Source: Enterobacteria phage vB_EcoM_IME540. From it: 64,000 bases of DNA. The number at the start of each line of letters is the position of its first letter. Positions within the stretch are counted from its first letter, which is position 1. The translations under genes were made by a program, and so were the position numbers. The notes under the pieces were generated by a model. It was not told the origin of the DNA, made no database searches, and saw only the letters and a list, made by a program, of their open reading frames with translations. Positions 2,936-27,613 of this stretch are shown here, one piece after another. The stretch lies in the sequence record MT150133.1. One strand, given 5' to 3'.

Positions 2936-4459
2936 TTATAGACCAGTTTGAGACCAATCACCGAATACATCTTCAAATGTATCAGCTTCTGTTTTATCGA
3001 AACGCCAACCTTTAATGATTGGAAGGAAAATACCTACAGTATCAGTACGTCCTTTAGAATGAACCCAACCATTACATTCACAGTCAGCAATACGTCCAAT
3101 CAACTTACCTTCACGAGCTTGTTTCATAAGAAGTTCACGGTCTAAATCAGGACGGTCTTCCAATGGAATCAATACCTTTTTACCTGATTTATCTTTCTTA
3201 TGGGTAGTATCTTTAAAGCCTGAACCACAGTCACTTGTAATTCGACGACAACGTGATACTAACTCAACACCACCTAGTTTGTTAGGGTCCTTCGAGTGTT
3301 CATAATAACCTACCACTTCTAAAGCGATATCGATTACTTCTTTGAACTTGATAAGATTCTTAGAACGGCGGTTTTCCCAGTAGGAGTCCATGTTCTTAAG
3401 GATAATGCCTTCCAGACCTTGGTCGACATATTTCTTATAAACGACTTTAGCTTCTTCAAGATTATTAACCCACTGGTTTTCGATAGCTTCAACACGCGTT
3501 GTGCCATGCAATACGACATTATGAGCCACCATAAGTTCTAAGGCTGTAAAGCGTACATCATACTTATCGCCTTTAATTTTGCCTTCAGAATACACGACAT
3601 CCAGTGGGACATAATCCCATGCCTGTAATACCATACCAGCGGCTTCAGTAGCCGAAATAGTTCCTTGAAGAGCCTTATTAGCCAATCCATTTGACGTAGA
3701 ACGATCGGCGACAGTTTGGAATTCCTTAGCCTTACTTAATTCAGGAAGTTCCTCGTCAAACATACTAAACAAATCATTAGATGCTTTAGGTTCTACCTTA
3801 GGAGTATGGTAAACTAATTCGCCATCAATCATAACGCCATTAGGATGGCGTTGTCGAGCTTCTTCGGTCATGGCCATTAATTCAGCCGCCAAAAGATTAA
3901 GCCCTTGATATTCGTTACCACCACGAGTAAGGAATGTCACACCATCGTTACGAACTTCGGCAAAACAACGAGCACCATCAGCTTTTAATTGAGCAAACGC
4001 TGGCCATTTAATATTTTTCTTAATCAAAGCTTCATCATAAGAACTCGCCAACATCTGCGGTTGTTCAGGGATTAAACCTTTCCAAACCTTGTTAGCAATA
4101 GAAATCGATGCACCACATTCAAGGTCGCGCATCATTACACGACGTAATACCTCGGCATCCGGGGCCTTAGCATCAGCAATGATTTGAGCCAGTTCTTCAA
4201 TAGCCGCATTACCCGTAATCTTACGTGTGGCTAATGTGAATTCAGCGAAATCAAGAAGGTCTTCAAGAGTAATCATACCAAAGGATTGAGATGTAAATCC
4301 AGGTTCTGGCCACTTTTTAATACCGTAGTTCAGACGACGGGTATAAGCCATACGATAAACACGTTTCAGAAGCTCATTGTCCTTTTCACGAGCAATAATG
4401 GCTTCTTTAGCTTTAGTAGAATCAATAGCAGCAATTTCGTTTAAAATATCTAAAATCAT
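2936..4459 (-). CDS. 30: ATP-dependent DNA ligase
   Basis: Strong resemblance to T4 gp30 (MILDILNEIA..., KADGARC adenylation motif); start set at MILD ATG rather than the upstream ORF-track start. Confidence 0.92.
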   Translation of the reverse strand: MILDILNEIAAIDSTKAKEAIIAREKDNELLKRVYRMAYTRRLNYGIKKWPEPGFTSQSFGMITLEDLLDFAEFTLATRKITGNAAIEELAQIIADAKAPDAEVLRRVMMRDLECGASISIANKVWKGLIPEQPQMLASSYDEALIKKNIKWPAFAQLKADGARCFAEVRNDGVTFLTRGGNEYQGLNLLAAELMAMTEEARQRHPNGVMIDGELVYHTPKVEPKASNDLFSMFDEELPELSKAKEFQTVADRSTSNGLANKALQGTISATEAAGMVLQAWDYVPLDVVYSEGKIKGDKYDVRFTALELMVAHNVVLHGTTRVEAIENQWVNNLEEAKVVYKKYVDQGLEGIILKNMDSYWENRRSKNLIKFKEVIDIALEVVGYYEHSKDPNKLGGVELVSRCRRITSDCGSGFKDTTHKKDKSGKKVLIPLEDRPDLDRELLMKQAREGKLIGRIADCECNGWVHSKGRTDTVGIFLPIIKGWRFDKTEADTFEDVFGDWSQTGL

Positions 4460-4469
4460 AATCACCTCA

Positions 4470-4748
4470 TTAGTCATGGATTCTATTATAAGCCACATCA
4501 GCCAAAAGCAAGTCTAATCGCTTATGATAAGAGAACACAAATCTCATTCGCCCATCAGATTTGAACTTGGACATAAAGTGGACATAAATGAATCCCTGTT
4601 CGACGCATTCGCGCCAAACAGGATGGTCTTTAGCCGGATTTACATCAAATGAGTAATCATGATTCACATGACGAATAAACTGGTTTACATGACCATAATC
4701 CATTGTAGTGGTAGGACCATAGTCTGAAATTGTATGAACTACAAACAT
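4470..4748 (-). CDS. hypothetical protein
   Basis: ORF track; start set to ATG at 4748, one base after the stop of the upstream HAD-like gene. Confidence 0.4.
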   Translation of the reverse strand: MFVVHTISDYGPTTTMDYGHVNQFIRHVNHDYSFDVNPAKDHPVWRECVEQGFIYVHFMSKFKSDGRMRFVFSYHKRLDLLLADVAYNRIHD

Positions 4749-14139: not shown

Positions 14140-14176
14140 AGTCTATACTAACACATTATGAGGAGATGTAAACTAC
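14140..14176 (-). promoter_or_regulatory. early promoter
   Basis: GTTTAC, 17 bp, TG-extended TAGTAT; -35 element overlaps rnlA stop codon. Confidence 0.5.
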
Positions 14177-15321
14177 TCTACCACAATTTCTTTCAAATAT
14201 TTTTCAGGGATTTTGGCCTTATGATTTTTCAAGAACACAGAGTTAATCTGGTCTACAACCGTATCATAATTAATACCGCCTACGTACGCCTGCATAAGAA
14301 TAGAGAACAAGCCTGGGAAGTCCTTAAGGATTAGCTGTCCAGTAACGGCGTAGTCTTTACGGTCGCGGCCCTTGAGTTGGGAATATGCTGCTTCCAACAA
14401 AGCCAATGATTGTTCTAAGTAATCTAAATGGATACGTTCGAAGGCATCGATTTTCTCAATAGCAAACGAATCTGTACTGAACAGACCACGGAGGTCATCG
14501 GTTCCACCTGCAACTACAACTTCAAATAAACGTTCGTTATTGTTAATGGAATCTTTGGTGTGATGCAGTGCACTGTACCAGGCGGTTTTGAGTTTAAAGA
14601 ACGTGCCGTCTTTCAGAACAAAGATGAAACCTTCAATACCCTCTTGTTTACGGATGTTTTCTACGAAATCGCCTTCAGTGAGGTCATAGCTTTCAACCAA
14701 ATGCTTACGCAGGGCCCCATCTTTAAACAGTTCAGCATACGGAATATACTCACCCGTTTCATTATTACGAACGTTCAACAGGATGAGGTTTGTTTCTTGG
14801 TAAGCCAGCACGATACGGTTGGTAGGTGCAACATATTCAAGGTTGCAGGTATACCCGGCTTTGGTGATTTCTTCTAGACGTGCGGCAAAAGCCTCGTTCT
14901 CAGGGCGACGAAGGAAACGTAAAGAATCATATACCATCGATGAATGGATAGAGCCTTTAGATTTAACAGAAAGATACTGTCGGTCCATAAAGGTAGAAAT
15001 CAGAGAACCATCTTCCTTAGCCATTACGAGGTCGATATTTTCTGGCGACAAATCCAGACCGATAGTCATAGGGTTTTCGTCGAGGTTAAAGAACTTTTGC
15101 ATAGGACGAGCAGCAATACGTACCGGACCGTTCTCGTCCATTTCAAACATAATGCCTCGGCACTCTAGTGCGCCGTCTTCCAACCAATCACTGTACGATG
15201 CATAGTTATAACTAAAGATGCGATAGTTGACTCCTAGCGCACTCTGAAAGTCTTTAAAGAAGAACTTAGATTTAGTCGAGTTTTTAACCAGGGCCATCAA
15301 GTTATCATATAATTCAATCAT
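14173..15321 (-). CDS. rnlA: RNA ligase 1 / tail-fibre attachment protein
   Basis: Strong resemblance to T4 gp63 (YRIFSYNYASYSDW...ECRGIMFE...KEDGSL...). Confidence 0.9.
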   Translation of the reverse strand: MIELYDNLMALVKNSTKSKFFFKDFQSALGVNYRIFSYNYASYSDWLEDGALECRGIMFEMDENGPVRIAARPMQKFFNLDENPMTIGLDLSPENIDLVMAKEDGSLISTFMDRQYLSVKSKGSIHSSMVYDSLRFLRRPENEAFAARLEEITKAGYTCNLEYVAPTNRIVLAYQETNLILLNVRNNETGEYIPYAELFKDGALRKHLVESYDLTEGDFVENIRKQEGIEGFIFVLKDGTFFKLKTAWYSALHHTKDSINNNERLFEVVVAGGTDDLRGLFSTDSFAIEKIDAFERIHLDYLEQSLALLEAAYSQLKGRDRKDYAVTGQLILKDFPGLFSILMQAYVGGINYDTVVDQINSVFLKNHKAKIPEKYLKEIVVE

Positions 15322-15968
15322 TACTTTACCTTAAAATTTTCAACCATTTGATAATAGGATACATCAGGATAATTTAAAGCTACCATCTTGCGTTTAAAGG
15401 TTCTATGACCGCATCGGCCCATTTTAACCCAATGTTCGAAAAGCTCCTTTTCGTAAAGCCAATGTTCCTTACGCTTGGAAGAAGGAACTCCTAGGGTTTT
15501 GGTATTAGAATTTGCTTTTAATCCTGAATTTTTTTCAAAGGCCGCTATAAGGCCTCCGTAATGCTCATTAGGATATCCTAATGAAACCGCCAAGCGCCCA
15601 AATCTTCCGTATCCTAATAGACCGTTATTTACCCATAATTCAAAAAGCTCATCATAAAAATACCATTGTGATAATTTATCACCAGTTTTATGACCCCTGC
15701 CTCCAAGAACAACATTTAAACAATATGGGTCCATTAAGGCCTCATAACATACCAATTCCTTTTCTTTATCATAAGCTTCCTGTTCATCTGAATGAAATGA
15801 TAAAATTTCCTTAATAAATCTAAAATTTCTTTTTATATAGGGTAGTTTTACACCACTACCACTATAAATGTCATTTTCAGGGTCCTCGTTAGACCTTTTA
15901 CCTATATAATAGTGGTCTTTAAATGGGCCTTCCATAACTGTAATTTTGTATATGTAATGTTTCTTCAT
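15321..15968 (-). CDS. GIY-YIG homing endonuclease-like protein (Seg-like)
   Basis: N-terminal YIYKIT...YYIGKRS GIY-YIG motifs; start ATG overlaps denA stop in an ATGA arrangement. Confidence 0.65.
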   Translation of the reverse strand: MKKHYIYKITVMEGPFKDHYYIGKRSNEDPENDIYSGSGVKLPYIKRNFRFIKEILSFHSDEQEAYDKEKELVCYEALMDPYCLNVVLGGRGHKTGDKLSQWYFYDELFELWVNNGLLGYGRFGRLAVSLGYPNEHYGGLIAAFEKNSGLKANSNTKTLGVPSSKRKEHWLYEKELFEHWVKMGRCGHRTFKRKMVALNYPDVSYYQMVENFKVK

Positions 15969-16375
15969 TTGGCACGGTGTTGGGTATTCCAAGGTGGATT
16001 AAATTTCTTTATGAACATTGGCTCTTCAAGAGACATGGTCTCAACTGACATAGTTCCAAGTTCGTTAGTCATCGACAGATTAAAGCACTGCCGTGCATAG
16101 AACTCTACCTTTTTACCAGCCATTAATGCTTCATGAATCAGAATGGACTTAGTCGAATCTGACGTTTGGTCCTTACGATTAATAGCGGTTCGGTAGTAGT
16201 TGATGCGCTTACGAAGATTTTTAGTCTTCCCGACGTAGACTAGTATATCATCAACCGCTATAGCATATATGACATTTTGTTTATTTGGTACTGTGAGTGG
16301 AGCTATGGTGGCGTCATCTTGGAGTTCTAGGGTGACGTACTTGATAAAGCTAAATTCGTCTGCGATTTCTTTCAT
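15965..16375 (-). CDS. denA: endonuclease II (GIY-YIG family)
   Basis: Resembles T4 DenA (VIYAIA...YVGKTKNLRKRINYYRTAINRKD...); start set at MKEIADE Met. Confidence 0.85.
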   Translation of the reverse strand: MKEIADEFSFIKYVTLELQDDATIAPLTVPNKQNVIYAIAVDDILVYVGKTKNLRKRINYYRTAINRKDQTSDSTKSILIHEALMAGKKVEFYARQCFNLSMTNELGTMSVETMSLEEPMFIKKFNPPWNTQHRAK

Positions 16376-16383
16376 AGCAATAA

Positions 16384-16397
16384 GGGGCCGAAGCCCC
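16384..16397 (-). promoter_or_regulatory. UUCG tetraloop hairpin between nrdB and denA
   Basis: GGGGC-UUCG-GCCCC; no U tract. Confidence 0.45.
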
Positions 16398-16402
16398 ATT
16401 CC

Positions 16403-22995: not shown

Positions 22996-23019
22996 TTTTA
23001 TTTCCTCATGTAGTTGATA

Positions 23020-23056
23020 GGTCTATAGTATCATGTTTAAAGGCGTTGTAAACCAT
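23020..23056 (-). promoter_or_regulatory. early promoter
   Basis: GTTTAC, 17 bp, TG-extended TACTAT; repeat of the 22308 cassette. Confidence 0.6.
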
Positions 23057-23105
23057 TAAATGCCAAAAAGGGAAGACCGAAGTCTTCCCATTATAAATCA
23101 ATAAC

Positions 23106-24011
23106 TTATAGACCAGCTAACAGGTCGTCCAGACCATCGTCATCAGAAGGACTTACTGACGGCTCAGGAGTAGTGGAACGAGTCGGTGTAGATGGTTTAG
23201 AATCATATGCATCAAGGTCTGCACTGAATGCGTCCAGGTCATCACCAATCTTATCAGCGGCTGCAGAAGCTTTAGCGGCAGCACCACCAAGAGCAGCTGT
23301 ACCAACAACTTTCTTAAACTTGGCTTCGTTAGTTTCGAATGATTTGAAATCGAGCAGTTTAGAAAGGTCGTGCATTTCTTCCATCAATTTAGCTTGGTAA
23401 GCTTCATCATTGATGTTAGGAATTTCAGACTGACCCATGAATTTGGAATCGTCGTAGTTCTTGAAGTCGCCAACTTTCTTAGATTTCAGTACGAAGTTCG
23501 CACCATCAAACGGACATGTTACGTCAACCGGCACTTCACCAATATCAGTATCAACTTCAACCATCTGGTTGATTTTATCCATAATTTTCTGACCGAAACG
23601 GAATTTAAACACTTTACCTTCGTTAGCAGGTACTGCACTATCCTTAATAACAAGGATGTTAGCCCAGAAGGAAGTTTTACGTTTCATCAGTTTGTATTCG
23701 GCATTATTAGTATTAAAGGTATCATTCTGGTTCATGTATTTACATACAGGACATGAATCGAAATCACCATGAGTAGACGTACATGATTCGATATACCACT
23801 GACCATTTTTCTTAAAACCATGGTTAACAAGCTTAACGAATGGGGATGGATTAGCTTCGTTTTTCGAAGGAAGGAATCGAATAACTGCGGTTCCTACGCC
23901 ATTGTCATCTTTCAATTTCCATTCGGATTTGTCATCAGACGAGAAAGAAGAGCCACCTTTCATTGCAGACAGTTGAGCAGCAAGTTCAGCAGGATTACGG
24001 CGTTTAAACAT
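23106..24011 (-). CDS. 32: single-stranded DNA-binding protein
   Basis: Near-colinear with T4 gp32 (MFKRR...AVIRFLPSK...acidic C-terminus); start at MFKRR. Confidence 0.92.
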
Positions 24012-24060
24012 AGACATATTATTTACCTTATTTGATATATTTAATAAATTTATTAACAGT
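24012..24060 (-). promoter_or_regulatory. gene 32 5' leader, candidate autoregulatory translational operator
   Basis: A/U-rich unstructured leader (TTAATAAATTTATTAAATATATCAAATAAGGTAAATAAT before ATG) like the T4 gene 32 operator. Confidence 0.4.
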
Positions 24061-24115
24061 TGTTGTTATCACGTTTACCTTGATAACTAGGTTTTGAAGA
24101 TGAAGTAATTATATA

Positions 24116-24733
24116 TCACTTCGAATAAAGCATTTTTAACTTAATGAATTCAGGGTCATCATTAGGAACCCAACCCTCATTAAATTGTTTAATCATACTC
24201 TTTGATGTAGTTTCACTAACATTTATACCAGAGTTAATGAGACGCCTCCATCCACAAGCTCTTCCACTAGAATTAATTATACAATAATTAGTATAAGCAA
24301 TATCACTAAGCATCCAATCTAAAGGGTTTGCTCTAGAAGTTTTCCAAGGACGGTAATCGGGTTGATTCATATAGTTAGCAGCTTTCATATGGGCTCTAAC
24401 TTCAGGACGTTTGGCTGGGTGAGTGCATCCAAAGACTCCAAATCCGCCACCGGCATAAACCAAATTAAAATAATCATCATTATCTCTAGCTTGAACTTCC
24501 AATTGTTCTGAACGTTCAATATTAATAACAATATCAAATGGCGTTATAGCCAAAATTTCAACAATAGGTTTTTCTTCTTCGATGGCCTCTTTAAATCTTG
24601 ATTGCTCGCAAGAGGTCCAATACTCTTTACCTTTACAGTCAATAATCACGCCATTTTCAAAAGTACAATTAGTTTTAGAACCTATGTACGAAAACGGCTT
24701 AATATTATTAGCCTGACGATTAAGCCAAGTCAT
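24116..24733 (-). CDS. unassigned protein between genes 59 and 32
   Basis: ORF track 24116..24760 (track start is TTG); first ATG at 24733; no Shine-Dalgarno seen; no family recognised by eye. Confidence 0.5.
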   Translation of the reverse strand: MTWLNRQANNIKPFSYIGSKTNCTFENGVIIDCKGKEYWTSCEQSRFKEAIEEEKPIVEILAITPFDIVINIERSEQLEVQARDNDDYFNLVYAGGGFGVFGCTHPAKRPEVRAHMKAANYMNQPDYRPWKTSRANPLDWMLSDIAYTNYCIINSSGRACGWRRLINSGINVSETTSKSMIKQFNEGWVPNDDPEFIKLKMLYSK

Positions 24734-24747
24734 TTTATAAACTATAT

Positions 24748-25401
24748 TCAAAATTTGCAACCCTTAATTGTTTCGATGAACAATTTACGAGCTTCTAAAT
24801 TATCAATTATAAGAATTTTCTTATAAGCATTTAATTTAGTCGAATACTTAGACCACACTAAATCGTTGGTCTGTTCATCATGTTTATCAATTATATCCAT
24901 AAATGAATCAAGCAAAATAAACGTTTCGAATGAAATAACATTCGATTGAAGGAGCTTAAAAATATAGCTCGAGTTAACTTTTTTATTATAATCAAAAATT
25001 TCAGAAAGCGCTTGAACTTCCACTTTCTTACTAAAATAATAAATGTTTTTGATATCATCCTCAAAAACTTGTTTTATTCTTTTAAGTCTACCGATATATT
25101 CTCGGTAAAAGACTAAGGCGTCAGCATCACTGATGTCGCCAATCCATGCGTCTTGGTTAGCCACCAAGTTACTCATGAAGATAAGAGCAAGCTCTTTCAA
25201 AGTGTATTTATCACTCAATTTCTCAAAGAAATATTTGTCACGACGTTTTTGATAAGCCGTATCAGAGATTCGCATGACCCAGTTATATTTGATAACGTCG
25301 TATTTGGCGTTGAAGTGATGCTTAAGTTGCAAATATAAAGAATACACGCTCTTACCATTCACCATACGATTATTGTTTGGCGGCATACGAATCTTAATCA
25401 T
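24748..25401 (-). CDS. 59: helicase loader / gp59
   Basis: 217 aa, near-colinear with T4 gp59 (MIKIRMP...YDVIKYNW...ANQDAWIGDISDADALVFYREY). Confidence 0.9.
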   Translation of the reverse strand: MIKIRMPPNNNRMVNGKSVYSLYLQLKHHFNAKYDVIKYNWVMRISDTAYQKRRDKYFFEKLSDKYTLKELALIFMSNLVANQDAWIGDISDADALVFYREYIGRLKRIKQVFEDDIKNIYYFSKKVEVQALSEIFDYNKKVNSSYIFKLLQSNVISFETFILLDSFMDIIDKHDEQTNDLVWSKYSTKLNAYKKILIIDNLEARKLFIETIKGCKF

Positions 25402-26080
25402 GATATTTCCATCCAGTCCACTTATCGCTTTTTAATCTGTAACTAACCAAACTATTGGATATTCCGAATTTGGAAGCCACTTCAGAACATGAATCATAAC
25501 ATATTCCATCGATAAGCAATTTCTTTTTGTATAAGTCTTTAAAAGATTGTGGCCTAGGTCCTGTATTTGCCTTAAGAAGAGCAGCTCTTGTACTATCAGG
25601 CATTTTAGGTCCTTTCTTACCTGCTCTGGATTTACTTAGAGCTTTTCGATGTGCATCGGTAAGATTAATACCTTTATTTGGTGAAGGTATATTTCTAAGT
25701 CTTCTTGTTATAGAAACTTTTTTACAAACACTATCAGGTCGTGGAATACCTAATTTAGATTTACTTATAGCAAGTTTATGTTCTTCAGATATTTTCTTAC
25801 CAAGTCCACCTTTACCGCCAACAACCAAATTATAAGTATTCGGGTCTGAAACAAATTCTTCGTTAACGAGTTCTCGCTCTTTATCAAAGGCCTCCTCTTG
25901 GGAATCCATAACAAAGAGAATTTCTTTTTCAAAATTCTCTATACCATGTTTTAATATAGCCTTCTTAATTAACTTACCTGAACCCATATAATGGTCATGG
26001 CGTTTGGTTTCTTTATGCACACCGATATAAATTTTACCATTCAATTTATTGGTTACTTTATATACGGTGTGTTTAATCAT
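25394..26080 (-). CDS. GIY-YIG homing endonuclease (Seg/I-TevI-like)
   Basis: VYKVTN...GKIYIGV GIY-YIG core, NUMOD3-like repeats, C-terminal region resembling the I-TevI DNA-binding domain; ATGA overlap with gene 33 stop. Confidence 0.8.
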   Translation of the reverse strand: MIKHTVYKVTNKLNGKIYIGVHKETKRHDHYMGSGKLIKKAILKHGIENFEKEILFVMDSQEEAFDKERELVNEEFVSDPNTYNLVVGGKGGLGKKISEEHKLAISKSKLGIPRPDSVCKKVSITRRLRNIPSPNKGINLTDAHRKALSKSRAGKKGPKMPDSTRAALLKANTGPRPQSFKDLYKKKLLIDGICYDSCSEVASKFGISNSLVSYRLKSDKWTGWKYHD

Positions 26081-26379
26081 AACAAGAAATCCAGGGTATT
26101 AGTCTTTTGCGTTCGGGCCATTGAAGGTCGAAGCAAGTTATCATCAATGGCTTCGTTCATAATTTTATCAATAATTCCTGCAGGCAAATAACGAGCAAAG
26201 TTACCTTCAGGGATGCTGTTCTCTTCCAACCATGCGGTAGCCGCTTCGAGGTAACTACAACCTTCAGCCTCAACAAAGGCCTCAATATCAAGACCGTTCT
26301 GTTGTTTGTTTACGAGCACATGGACAGGTTCGGAAGCGGTATTAACCGCTCCATCAAAATCATTCAAAGATTGTGTCAT
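26077..26379 (-). CDS. 33: late transcription co-activator gp33
   Basis: 100 aa, resembles T4 gp33 (SYLEAATAWLEENSIPEG...LLRPS...KTNTLDFLL). Confidence 0.85.
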   Translation of the reverse strand: MTQSLNDFDGAVNTASEPVHVLVNKQQNGLDIEAFVEAEGCSYLEAATAWLEENSIPEGNFARYLPAGIIDKIMNEAIDDNLLRPSMARTQKTNTLDFLL

Positions 26380-26629
26380 ACAGTTCTACCACTTCAGTTT
26401 TTTCGTCTTCGAAACGTTCACGAGTGCCTTTATGATACAGGGAGAACAGCTGGTTAAACATTTTACCGTCTACACCAAGTTCAGTCTTAGCACGGTCTTT
26501 GATATCTTTAATTTCGTCGCCATAAGCTTCCATTTTTAATTTAGTATCGGAAGCAGACTTAATCAGTTGTGCCAATGTGTTACCGTGTTCTTCTTGATTG
26601 AATTCAACTTTCACTTTTTCTTTAGCCAT
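26360..26629 (-). CDS. dsbA: DsbA-like double-stranded DNA-binding protein
   Basis: 89 aa from MAKEK; position between 33 and rnh as in T4. Confidence 0.6.
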   Translation of the reverse strand: MAKEKVKVEFNQEEHGNTLAQLIKSASDTKLKMEAYGDEIKDIKDRAKTELGVDGKMFNQLFSLYHKGTRERFEDEKTEVVELYDTIFE

Positions 26630-26639
26630 TATATTCACC

Positions 26640-27587
26640 TTAATAAAAATCAGCTACTGTAGCGGTTAGTTTAGACAAACCAGATTTAACGAAATAAGGA
26701 TAGACTTTAGATTTCGAAGGTTTGTTATACGTATTATATCTTTCAGTAATTAAAGCAACAATATCATCTGGAATAAAGTCCATATCAATTAAGATTTGGT
26801 TTTCACAGAAACGTTCATATTGTTCTTCAGTAAGAAGTGTTTTAATTATATCATGGTCATAATAATTCAGAGCAATCGCTTCAAGTTCCTTGGCACGAGT
26901 GCTAGGAGTACGTTCGCCTTCAACCATTGTCAACCAGTAATCACCACGAACTTTAATACTCGCGACGTTATCTTTACGGTCACCTTTAACAACCTTAGTC
27001 ACGCAATCAAGCAATGCATCACCAGATTTTGTTTTGACGAATTTTTTCTGCATTGGGGACCATTGTTTTACACCAGGGAATTTATGAAGTTGGGTAAAGT
27101 CACCATCAGAAGAACCAATCATAACAGGGTGACCTAAAGCCGTAAGGATACGAGTCAATACAGCAATATGGTCATCAGCCTCGATTGTATCGATATTCAT
27201 AACAATATAAGGCATATTATGTTCCAATTCATCGACAATAATATGCATTGCTGTAAATAGGCCTTCCCAGTCAAATGGTGATTCGTCACGAGCCTTAGCA
27301 CGGTTTTTCTTATAATAAGAAGAATAACGACGACGCCAATAACCTGATTTGGAGTTATCAACACAAATAATTAATTGGTTGTAACCTTGTTTACGGAAGT
27401 CTTTAATGTTTTTCTTAATTGAATTCAACACGAGGTGTCGAAGCATTGCGGTAGTTACTTTAGGAAATCCAGCATTCTCACCAAACTCTTGGAAAGCCGC
27501 AGCCATAATGATTTGGCTGAAATCTAGGAGTAAAAATCCATCTTTTTGTTGGTCTTCTTCAGGAAGTAAAAAATCTAAATCGTTCAT
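26640..27587 (-). CDS. rnh: RNase H (5'-3' exonuclease, FEN family)
   Basis: Near-colinear with T4 RNase H. Confidence 0.88.
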   Translation of the reverse strand: MNDLDFLLPEEDQQKDGFLLLDFSQIIMAAAFQEFGENAGFPKVTTAMLRHLVLNSIKKNIKDFRKQGYNQLIICVDNSKSGYWRRRYSSYYKKNRAKARDESPFDWEGLFTAMHIIVDELEHNMPYIVMNIDTIEADDHIAVLTRILTALGHPVMIGSSDGDFTQLHKFPGVKQWSPMQKKFVKTKSGDALLDCVTKVVKGDRKDNVASIKVRGDYWLTMVEGERTPSTRAKELEAIALNYYDHDIIKTLLTEEQYERFCENQILIDMDFIPDDIVALITERYNTYNKPSKSKVYPYFVKSGLSKLTATVADFY

Positions 27588-27613
27588 ATGAACCTCTGTT
27601 CAAGTAGTTGAGA

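Follow-up and report, generated by a model that had tools for sequence, protein, structure and literature searches.

A free-standing GIY-YIG homing endonuclease gene at the 33/59 junction of T4-like phages, with a probable target and immunity allele in gene 59

Gene order at the locus

The stretch of DNA analyzed here (the window) comprises 64,000 nucleotides of Enterobacteria phage vB_EcoM_IME540 (MT150133.1), a T4-type coliphage that resembles JS98 and belongs to the genus Dhakavirus. Across positions 23000-27600, identity is 97.6% to Escherichia phage AnYang and 95-99% to Bp7, LHE83, MX01, JS98, and others. The genes of this region all lie on the minus strand:

26640-27587, minus strand: rnh
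26360-26638, minus strand: dsbA
26077-26379, minus strand: gene 33, late-transcription co-activator and upstream neighbor of the endonuclease gene (Pfam Trans_coact, 1e-25)
25394-26080, minus strand: free-standing GIY-YIG homing endonuclease gene of the Seg/I-TevI type, 228 aa, ATG start (ORF, Pfam, TIGR01453, PHROG 314)
24748-25401, minus strand: gene 59, helicase loader, downstream neighbor and probable target of the endonuclease (Pfam T4_Gp59_N, 2e-46; T4_Gp59_C, 1e-39)
24116-24751 (ORF to 24760), minus strand: SegG orthologue in the 59/32 gap (T4 SegG match, PHROG 7504, locus)
23106-24017, minus strand: gene 32

The original prediction placed a Seg/I-TevI-like endonuclease gene at 25394-26080, and both its coordinates and its description proved exact, with an intact ORF of 228 aa on the minus strand. 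This ORF is a free-standing GIY-YIG homing endonuclease gene (HEG) of the T4 Seg/I-TevI type, and both of the genes beside it are essential to the phage. Its protein is 100% identical to QAU03685, QJA42504, and YP_010100370, bears the RefSeq name “homing endonuclease” in phage AnYang, and has also been deposited for IME540; the identical protein is encoded on about 20 assembled contigs. A search of the literature for a paper on an endonuclease gene at the 33/59 junction found none, and the paper on Winklervirus LC53 notes of its homologue, gp244, that close relatives differ in whether they have it. The HEG sequence is already public and annotated, and what is added here is a defined lineage together with a predicted target and immunity patch.

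A second non-core insert had also been proposed in the 32-59-33 block. It was confirmed at 24116-24751 and identified as the orthologue of T4 SegG (58% identity, E = 1e-88; PHROG 7504 at 2.7e-113), situated at the same 59/32 locus as in T4. Its start is probably the TTG at 24751 rather than 24733, and its 3′ end contains, at 24132, a MotA-type middle-promoter-like site for gene 32. In Dhakavirus, the 59/32 gap is either empty or occupied by the SegG type or by a second type that is only 31% identical to the SegG type. Elsewhere in the window, there is at least one further Seg-like ORF (15321-15992).

Domains and fold of the encoded protein

The HEG protein has three parts:

25805-26080, minus strand: N-terminal GIY-YIG catalytic domain, aa 1-92 (Pfam GIY-YIG and SegE_GIY-YIG; AlphaFold model)
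25547-25795, minus strand: linker of four NUMOD3-like repeats of ~20 aa, aa 96-178, no zinc finger (NUMOD3 match)
25403-25528, minus strand: C-terminal I-TevI-type helix-turn-helix DNA-binding domain, aa 185-226 (PF20987, 1i3j, Foldseek)

The I-TevI/Seg subfamily was defined by TIGR01453 and by Pfam PF01541/PF19835, PF07460, and PF20987. Against TIGR01453 (“group I intron endonuclease”), the protein scores 85.9 bits (cut-off 56.05), with residues 3-226 aligned to positions 1-212 of the 215 in the profile, and the match to PHROG 314 (“homing endonuclease”) stands at 4.6e-58. Each of the three elements named in the original prediction (GIY-YIG core, NUMOD3-like repeats, and I-TevI-like C-terminal segment) is borne out. 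Scores for the core lie above the cut-offs of both Pfam GIY-YIG (24.0 bits vs. 22.6) and SegE_GIY-YIG (26.3 vs. 25), those for the repeats above that of NUMOD3 (22.7 vs. 20.4), and those for the C-terminus above the curated cut-off of I-TevI_DNA-bd (PF20987; 53.9 bits vs. 27; 1.6e-14). The C-terminal peptide quoted in that prediction does occur in the protein, and its alignment with the DNA-binding domain of I-TevI (PDB entry 1i3j) is far beyond chance (phmmer, E = 2e-7). A lack of homology to GIY-YIG endonucleases had been named as the outcome that would tell against the gene, and the database searches returned such homology clearly.

The AlphaFold2 model of the protein has a mean pLDDT of 82, with both terminal domains near 90 and the catalytic domain at 85-95. 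In a Foldseek search with this model, the two best PDB matches were the I-TevI DNA-binding domain (1i3j, rank 1) and the I-TevI catalytic domain, with a probability of 1.0; the modeled catalytic domain matches I-TevI entries 1mk0 and 1ln0 with a probability of 1.0 and a TM of 0.65. All positions that are invariant in an alignment of 21 homologues are kept: Y7 (the GIY Tyr), Y18 and G20 (the Tyr-x-Gly of YIG), H22, D29, Y31, GSG33-35, E68 (the catalytic Glu), and N84 (the Asn). An Arg27 is present as well, but HMMER pairs it with Arg30 of I-TevI and the position is variable in the clade alignment. An equivalent of the catalytic Arg27 of I-TevI is not clearly alignable; in its vicinity, H22, D29, and K44 are basic or polar and invariant. 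The HEG is intact and probably active.

Relation to known endonucleases of T4

When compared with the endonucleases of T4, the HEG protein matches SegD best, followed by SegB, SegC, SegE, SegA, and I-TevI, while SegG is essentially unrelated. SegD, which is encoded between genes 23 and 24, is 39% identical over 156 aa (1e-31), and SegB is 54% identical over the 89-aa catalytic domain. The motif YIGxH...D.YMGSG is common to the HEG and to SegD, SegB, SegC, SegE, and SegA, all of which are free-standing and intergenic. However, the C-terminal halves of SegB, SegC, SegE, and SegA do not align with that of the HEG, and each of these genes is found at another locus.

With I-TevI, the endonuclease of the T4 td intron, the HEG shares a modular layout (GIY-YIG at the N-terminus and helix-turn-helix at the C-terminus, joined by an extended linker), a full-length alignment (28% identity, E = 4.5e-13), and the C-terminal motif SDKW..W.Y. 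The two differ in genomic site and in presumed target. In addition, I-TevI has a zinc finger in its linker, whereas the HEG has NUMOD3-like repeats and a single Cys (C119), which makes a zinc finger of the I-TevI type impossible. Nor does the HEG lie in an intron, as its immediate borders are the stop of gene 33 and the start of gene 59. As it lacks the zinc finger and is not intron-borne, it is best described as I-TevI-like and not as I-TevI.

Two further identities were considered, of which SegG was rejected on sequence and locus and SegH on locus. SegG of T4 resides in the same neighborhood, in the 59/32 gap, and as a promoter-less cassette it may, by analogy, share the life style of the HEG. 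The HEG would then, like SegG, cut an adjacent essential replication gene, with the stretch from the cut to the HEG itself necessarily co-converted. There is no meaningful similarity between the two proteins (E = 0.023-0.35; 0.023 against T4 SegG), and the locus is 33/59 and not 59/32. As summarized in PMC2988022 and PMC535899, SegG cleaves gene 32, and co-conversion starts from a distant site (Liu et al., 2003). The second candidate is SegH, a name carried by a Mosigvirus homologue at 33/59 (Shf125875, “SegH; similar to RB3 segH”), where the label rests on similarity only. SegH as published is a seg-like gene in place of mobC (Sandegren, Nord & Sjoberg, 2005), and mobC of T4 lies between nrdG and nrdD, a locus different from 33/59. 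No RB3 record was among the matches in the search for HEG relatives.

Full-length relatives of the HEG, 49-58% identical to it, occupy the 33/59 junction, overlapping both neighbors in the same way, in Mosigvirus, in Winklervirus, and on three metagenomic T4-like contigs (53-58% identity for the metagenomic phages). A relative at 39% identity that retains the I-TevI-type C-terminus sits instead between genes 23 and 24, the position of segD. Since the closer relatives keep to 33/59 and this more distant one does not, the 33/59 HEGs form a site-specific lineage, separate from SegA-G of T4. A search of IMG/VR for close relatives gave only distant matches.

Boundaries of the insert

Alignment with insert-free relatives defines two junctions:

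26073-26080, minus strand: left junction ATGATTAA, with the HEG start codon, copy 1 of an 8-nt direct repeat
25394-25401, minus strand: right junction ATGATTAA, with the gene 59 start, copy 2 of the 8-nt direct repeat

The insertion is clean, 679 bp in length, and lies between these 8-nt direct repeats. As had been proposed, the HEG overlaps both of its neighbors, which is evident from the ORF coordinates and the alignment: upstream, its start codon ATG (26078-26080) shares bases with the stop of gene 33 in the tetranucleotide ATGA (26077-26080), and downstream, gene 59 begins with the 8 nt (25394-25401) in which the HEG ends and which include its TAA stop. Genus by genus, the opening 8-10 nt of the HEG reproduce the start of the resident gene 59; on contig L012, this sequence is ATGATTCGTC, present twice. 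In JS98, Bp7, MX01, LHE83, VR5, IME08, FB, and NC-G, gene 33 runs straight into gene 59, its stop overlapping the start of the latter. The HEG takes over the site at which gene 59 originally started and supplies a replacement start at its own 3′ end. Because the insert duplicates the initial 8 nt of gene 59 and is joined to gene 33 through ATGA, gene 33, the HEG, and gene 59 stay coupled in one operon. The junction itself, GATTTCTT(G/A)TTATGATTAA, is highly conserved, and insertion has occurred at the same nucleotide in several genera.

Expression

Three features may bear on how the HEG is expressed:

27646-27619: strong sigma-70-like site upstream of rnh
26733-26757, minus strand: MotA-box middle-promoter-like site (TGCTTTA-N12-TATAAT) at the 3′ end of rnh, candidate for dsbA-33-HEG-59 (consensus match only)
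26013-26082, minus strand: predicted RNA hairpin, HEG start codon (UUAUG) paired with CAUAA ~60 nt downstream (MFE −25.6 kcal/mol)

A pattern scan of the HEG for sigma-70-like sites, terminators, and good MotA boxes found none better than chance, and the late-promoter motif TATAAATA is absent from the region. With no internal promoter-like site, the HEG looks like a promoter-less cassette that is translationally coupled to gene 33. Several seg and mob genes of T4 are promoter-less cassettes, and T4 Seg enzymes cleave in the neighboring gene, with start-site hairpins in several cases (PMC2988022). Hairpins of this kind regulate I-TevI, I-TevII, I-TevIII, segB, and mobE (PMC2988022). The hairpin predicted for the HEG is thermodynamically unusual (z-score of −4.5) and conserved: across six diverged members of the clade, the share of paired cells is 92%, whereas slid controls reach 25-48%. 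Its support from covariation is weak, and constraint on the coding sequence confounds it. According to this folding model, the hairpin may keep HEG expression low through translational damping.

Distribution and mobility

The proposed check of the insert was a comparison of the 33/59 junction among related phages, and it showed the insert to be non-core, as it is missing from eight sampled Dhakaviruses (JS98, Bp7, MX01, LHE83, VR5, IME08, FB, and NC-G). Carriers of this genus in the phage collection amount to three records, namely AnYang (two accessions) and LQ5. The HEG is oriented like its neighbors, and its presence varies among otherwise near-identical phages. In Mosigvirus, a relative is present in 29 of about 155 records and missing from about 125, and Winklervirus is likewise divided into carriers (CHI14, CBH8, Kc304, and LC53) and non-carriers (X20, Virsaitis27, Gravdalen, and Vettismorki).

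Within Dhakavirus, the HEG is 99.7-99.9% identical among the window, AnYang, and LQ5, whereas the 1.5 kb upstream differs by ~4% among them, and the upstream flank of the window is closest to that of LHE83, a HEG-less phage. A near-identical HEG in diverged and mosaic flanks indicates recent horizontal spread by recombination. About 20 contigs encode the unchanged protein, although their genes differ at up to 13 silent nucleotides; these loci (L038-L047 among the carriers) were retrieved by exact protein identity, such that only silent differences are visible and the low diversity is in part by construction. The description of the 32-59-33 block as a recombination hotspot is accurate, as all four presence/absence combinations of the two HEGs occur among relatives and the flanks are mosaic. 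What makes the block a hotspot are the endonuclease genes themselves.

An alternative possibility is that the HEG is a decaying or domesticated relic that has lost its own homing. SegD, the closest paralogue in T4, is reportedly unable to initiate homing of its own gene. It is also listed without a demonstrated target (PMC2988022), and the rarity of the HEG in Dhakavirus, with only three phage records, would fit a relic. However, no family-invariant residue has been lost from the full-length ORF, the many contigs share one protein sequence with at most 13 silent differences, subject to the mode of retrieval given above, and the spread of a near-identical gene among differing flanks appears to be recent. 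A relic is, on this evidence, very unlikely.

A recoded patch in gene 59

The HEG was removed in silico from 11 HEG-containing Dhakaviruses, and 2 kb of flank was aligned with that of 8 HEG-less Dhakaviruses (2061 columns). Only 7 of the 2061 columns are diagnostic for the presence of the HEG, and all 7 fall within nt 15-78 of gene 59. They belong to the following feature:

25321-25387, minus strand: recoded patch, gene 59 nt 15-81, candidate recognition/cleavage site and immunity allele (HEG-containing genomes only)

In the core of this patch (nt 57-81; 25321-25345), 9-10 of 25 positions differ, including a change of Met25 to Gln. When a 51-nt probe of the Dhakavirus carrier patch was searched against the whole phage collection, it matched records with the HEG only.

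Corresponding patches are present in the other two genera. Winklervirus carriers differ from non-carriers by 23 substitutions within nt 28-78 of gene 59 and by 0-1 elsewhere in the gene, such that 45% of positions are changed over 51 nt, with four amino-acid changes, beside about 570 identical nt. In Mosigvirus, a variant allele at nt 60-92 (Gln28 to Asn, Asn31 to Gly) is found in 29 of 29 carriers and in 31 of about 127 non-carriers (about a quarter), the other ~96 having the reference allele. The association of HEG and allele is strong (Fisher p = 4e-15), a value that is not corrected for phylogeny, and simple common descent could account for patch and HEG being linked. None of the flank columns is strictly diagnostic among 9 aligned Mosigvirus genomes, and the association appears only in the larger sample, as a difference in allele frequency. 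Carriers in all three genera have a recoded patch within nt ~15-92 of gene 59 in which amino acids are changed, and this patch is newly described here. It is probable that the patch represents the recognition/cleavage site and the immunity allele.

The patch may alternatively be hitchhiking DNA of a foreign donor, co-converted when the HEG entered each genus and without any role in immunity. Homing is known to co-convert flanking markers, as for SegG (PMC2988022), and the linkage of patch and HEG is perfect in Dhakavirus. Nevertheless, the patch is not contiguous with the HEG insert, and the start of gene 59 that intervenes is of the resident type: nt 1-27 in Winklervirus carriers and nt 1-56 (except nt 15) in Dhakavirus carriers, with genus-specific bases among them. 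A search for a foreign donor of the Dhakavirus patch found no sampled genus that matches it better than the HEG-less allele does, and the density of change in Winklervirus, 45% of positions directly beside a long identical stretch, also counts against a passive origin. We therefore consider hitchhiking improbable.

It is also conceivable that the HEG is active but that its recognition site spans the 33/59 junction and is destroyed by the insertion, as for intron-encoded I-TevI, in which case the patch is not the target. The insertion at exactly the same nucleotide of a highly conserved junction in several genera would be expected from such a site, and Mosigvirus carriers have flanks identical to those of some non-carriers. 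What a junction site leaves unexplained are the dense patches that accompany the HEG in three genera, altering the amino acids of an essential protein and flanked by identical sequence. Overall, this reading is rather unlikely as it stands. If the site were bipartite and included the junction, however, both the patch and the junction may be involved, and each view would be partly right.

A last alternative concerns RNA structure. The insertion replaces the sequence upstream of the gene 59 AUG, and the patch might compensate for an altered mRNA structure at the translation start. When placed in the same context, the carrier allele gives a predicted accessibility of 0.44 at the gene 59 start vs. 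0.53 for the JS98 allele; the carrier allele does not improve accessibility, and compensation is unsupported as the cause of the patch. It would also leave the amino-acid replacements unexplained, and it is exceedingly improbable.

A model for homing

Taken together, these observations are very probably best explained by an intact and probably active free-standing HEG, of a lineage that is always found at 33/59, which would home into HEG-less phages by way of a target in gene 59. The enzymes of this lineage would recognize the conserved 5′ part of gene 59 that encodes GKSVYxLYLM. In a mixed infection, the enzyme would bind and cut the HEG-less allele within roughly nt 15-92 of gene 59, and the break would then be repaired from the carrier genome, with the patch and the HEG copied into the recipient by homing with co-conversion. 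The recoded patch would, in turn, make the carrier's own gene 59 resistant. If the cut lies within gene 59 and carrier alleles are immune, homing necessarily co-converts the patch along with the HEG. Homing with co-conversion has been described for SegF (gene 56) and for SegG (gene 32), which provide a precedent for the HEG and gene 59.

A broader proposal is that an uncharacterized Seg lineage, present in at least three named Tevenvirinae genera and in metagenomic phages, targets codons ~10-31 of gene 59 (GKSVYxLYLM) and that each invasion forces recoding, including Met25 to Gln in Dhakavirus and Met21 to Gln in Winklervirus. We regard this proposal as evenly poised between being right and being wrong.

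Implications

By itself, a HEG at the 33/59 junction is a routine selfish element of a T4-like phage. Its value is comparative, as it belongs to a Seg lineage with strict fidelity to this junction and yields a precise, testable prediction of both target and immunity allele at nt ~15-92 of gene 59. The locus also offers a clean natural example of how HEGs set up boundaries of recombination and cause essential phage genes to be recoded locally, which is relevant to mosaicism among therapeutic coliphages. Ultimately, if gene 59 is the shared target of this lineage, the HEG would be a new, naturally occurring I-TevI-like nuclease whose target is defined, and a selfish nuclease would directly drive the protein evolution of an essential replication factor.

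Predicted start-codon hairpin of the endonuclease gene

In the homing endonuclease gene at the gene 33/gene 59 junction, the stretch that codes for the GIY motif is complementary to the one for the YIG motif, and the two can form a long hairpin (window 26013-26082, minus strand) that also pairs the start codon. This hairpin is kept across the clade of 33/59 endonucleases, and it may be regulatory; alternatively, it may be a by-product of the palindromes formed by Tyr and Ile codons.

Gene 59 variation in other phages

Bp7 and FB, both Dhakaviruses that lack the endonuclease gene, have a variant patch of their own at gene 59 nt 45-107, in the same stretch that is recoded in carriers. The changes are purely synonymous, and the patch may represent another resistant allele or a trace of past homing. 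In the original GenBank record of RB69 (AY303349; nt 762-1289 of the compared locus), gene 59 is annotated from a start that lies 126 nt further downstream than the conserved ATG, which overlaps the gene 33 stop. The upstream start is the one annotated in other Mosigvirus records.

Additional Seg-like genes

Further Seg-like ORFs, and a promoter-like site within one of them, are found in the window:

15321-15992, minus strand: third Seg-like ORF, 223 aa, with the motif YIYKIT...YYIGKRS...YSGSG
24116-24751, minus strand: SegG orthologue in the 59/32 locus, as in T4
24132: MotA-box middle-promoter-like site for gene 32, in the 3' end of the SegG orthologue

The third ORF is inserted between rnlA (14173-15321) and denA (15965-16399), and 28 nt of it overlap the 3' end of denA. 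Pfam gives no match for this ORF. Its identity to the catalytic domains of the 33/59 endonucleases, the relative between genes 23 and 24, and T4 SegD is 36-39%.

The other insert that the original prediction named in the 32-59-33 block is indeed present and is the SegG orthologue, with 58% identity to T4 SegG. Its ORF has no match in Pfam or NCBIfam, and its identity was assigned solely from PHROG 7504 and direct comparison. T4 segG is likewise described with a MotA-box middle promoter for gene 32 in its 3' end.

A second, divergent SegG-like type occupies the 59/32 gap in LQ5, NC-G and a metagenomic phage:

L038/L039 (carrier loci) 3330-3950
L020 (NC-G) 2272-2901
L010 (metagenomic phage) 3846-4511

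Because this type, only 31% identical to the SegG-like protein of the window and 34% to T4 SegG, fills the same gap, at least two SegG lineages compete for it.
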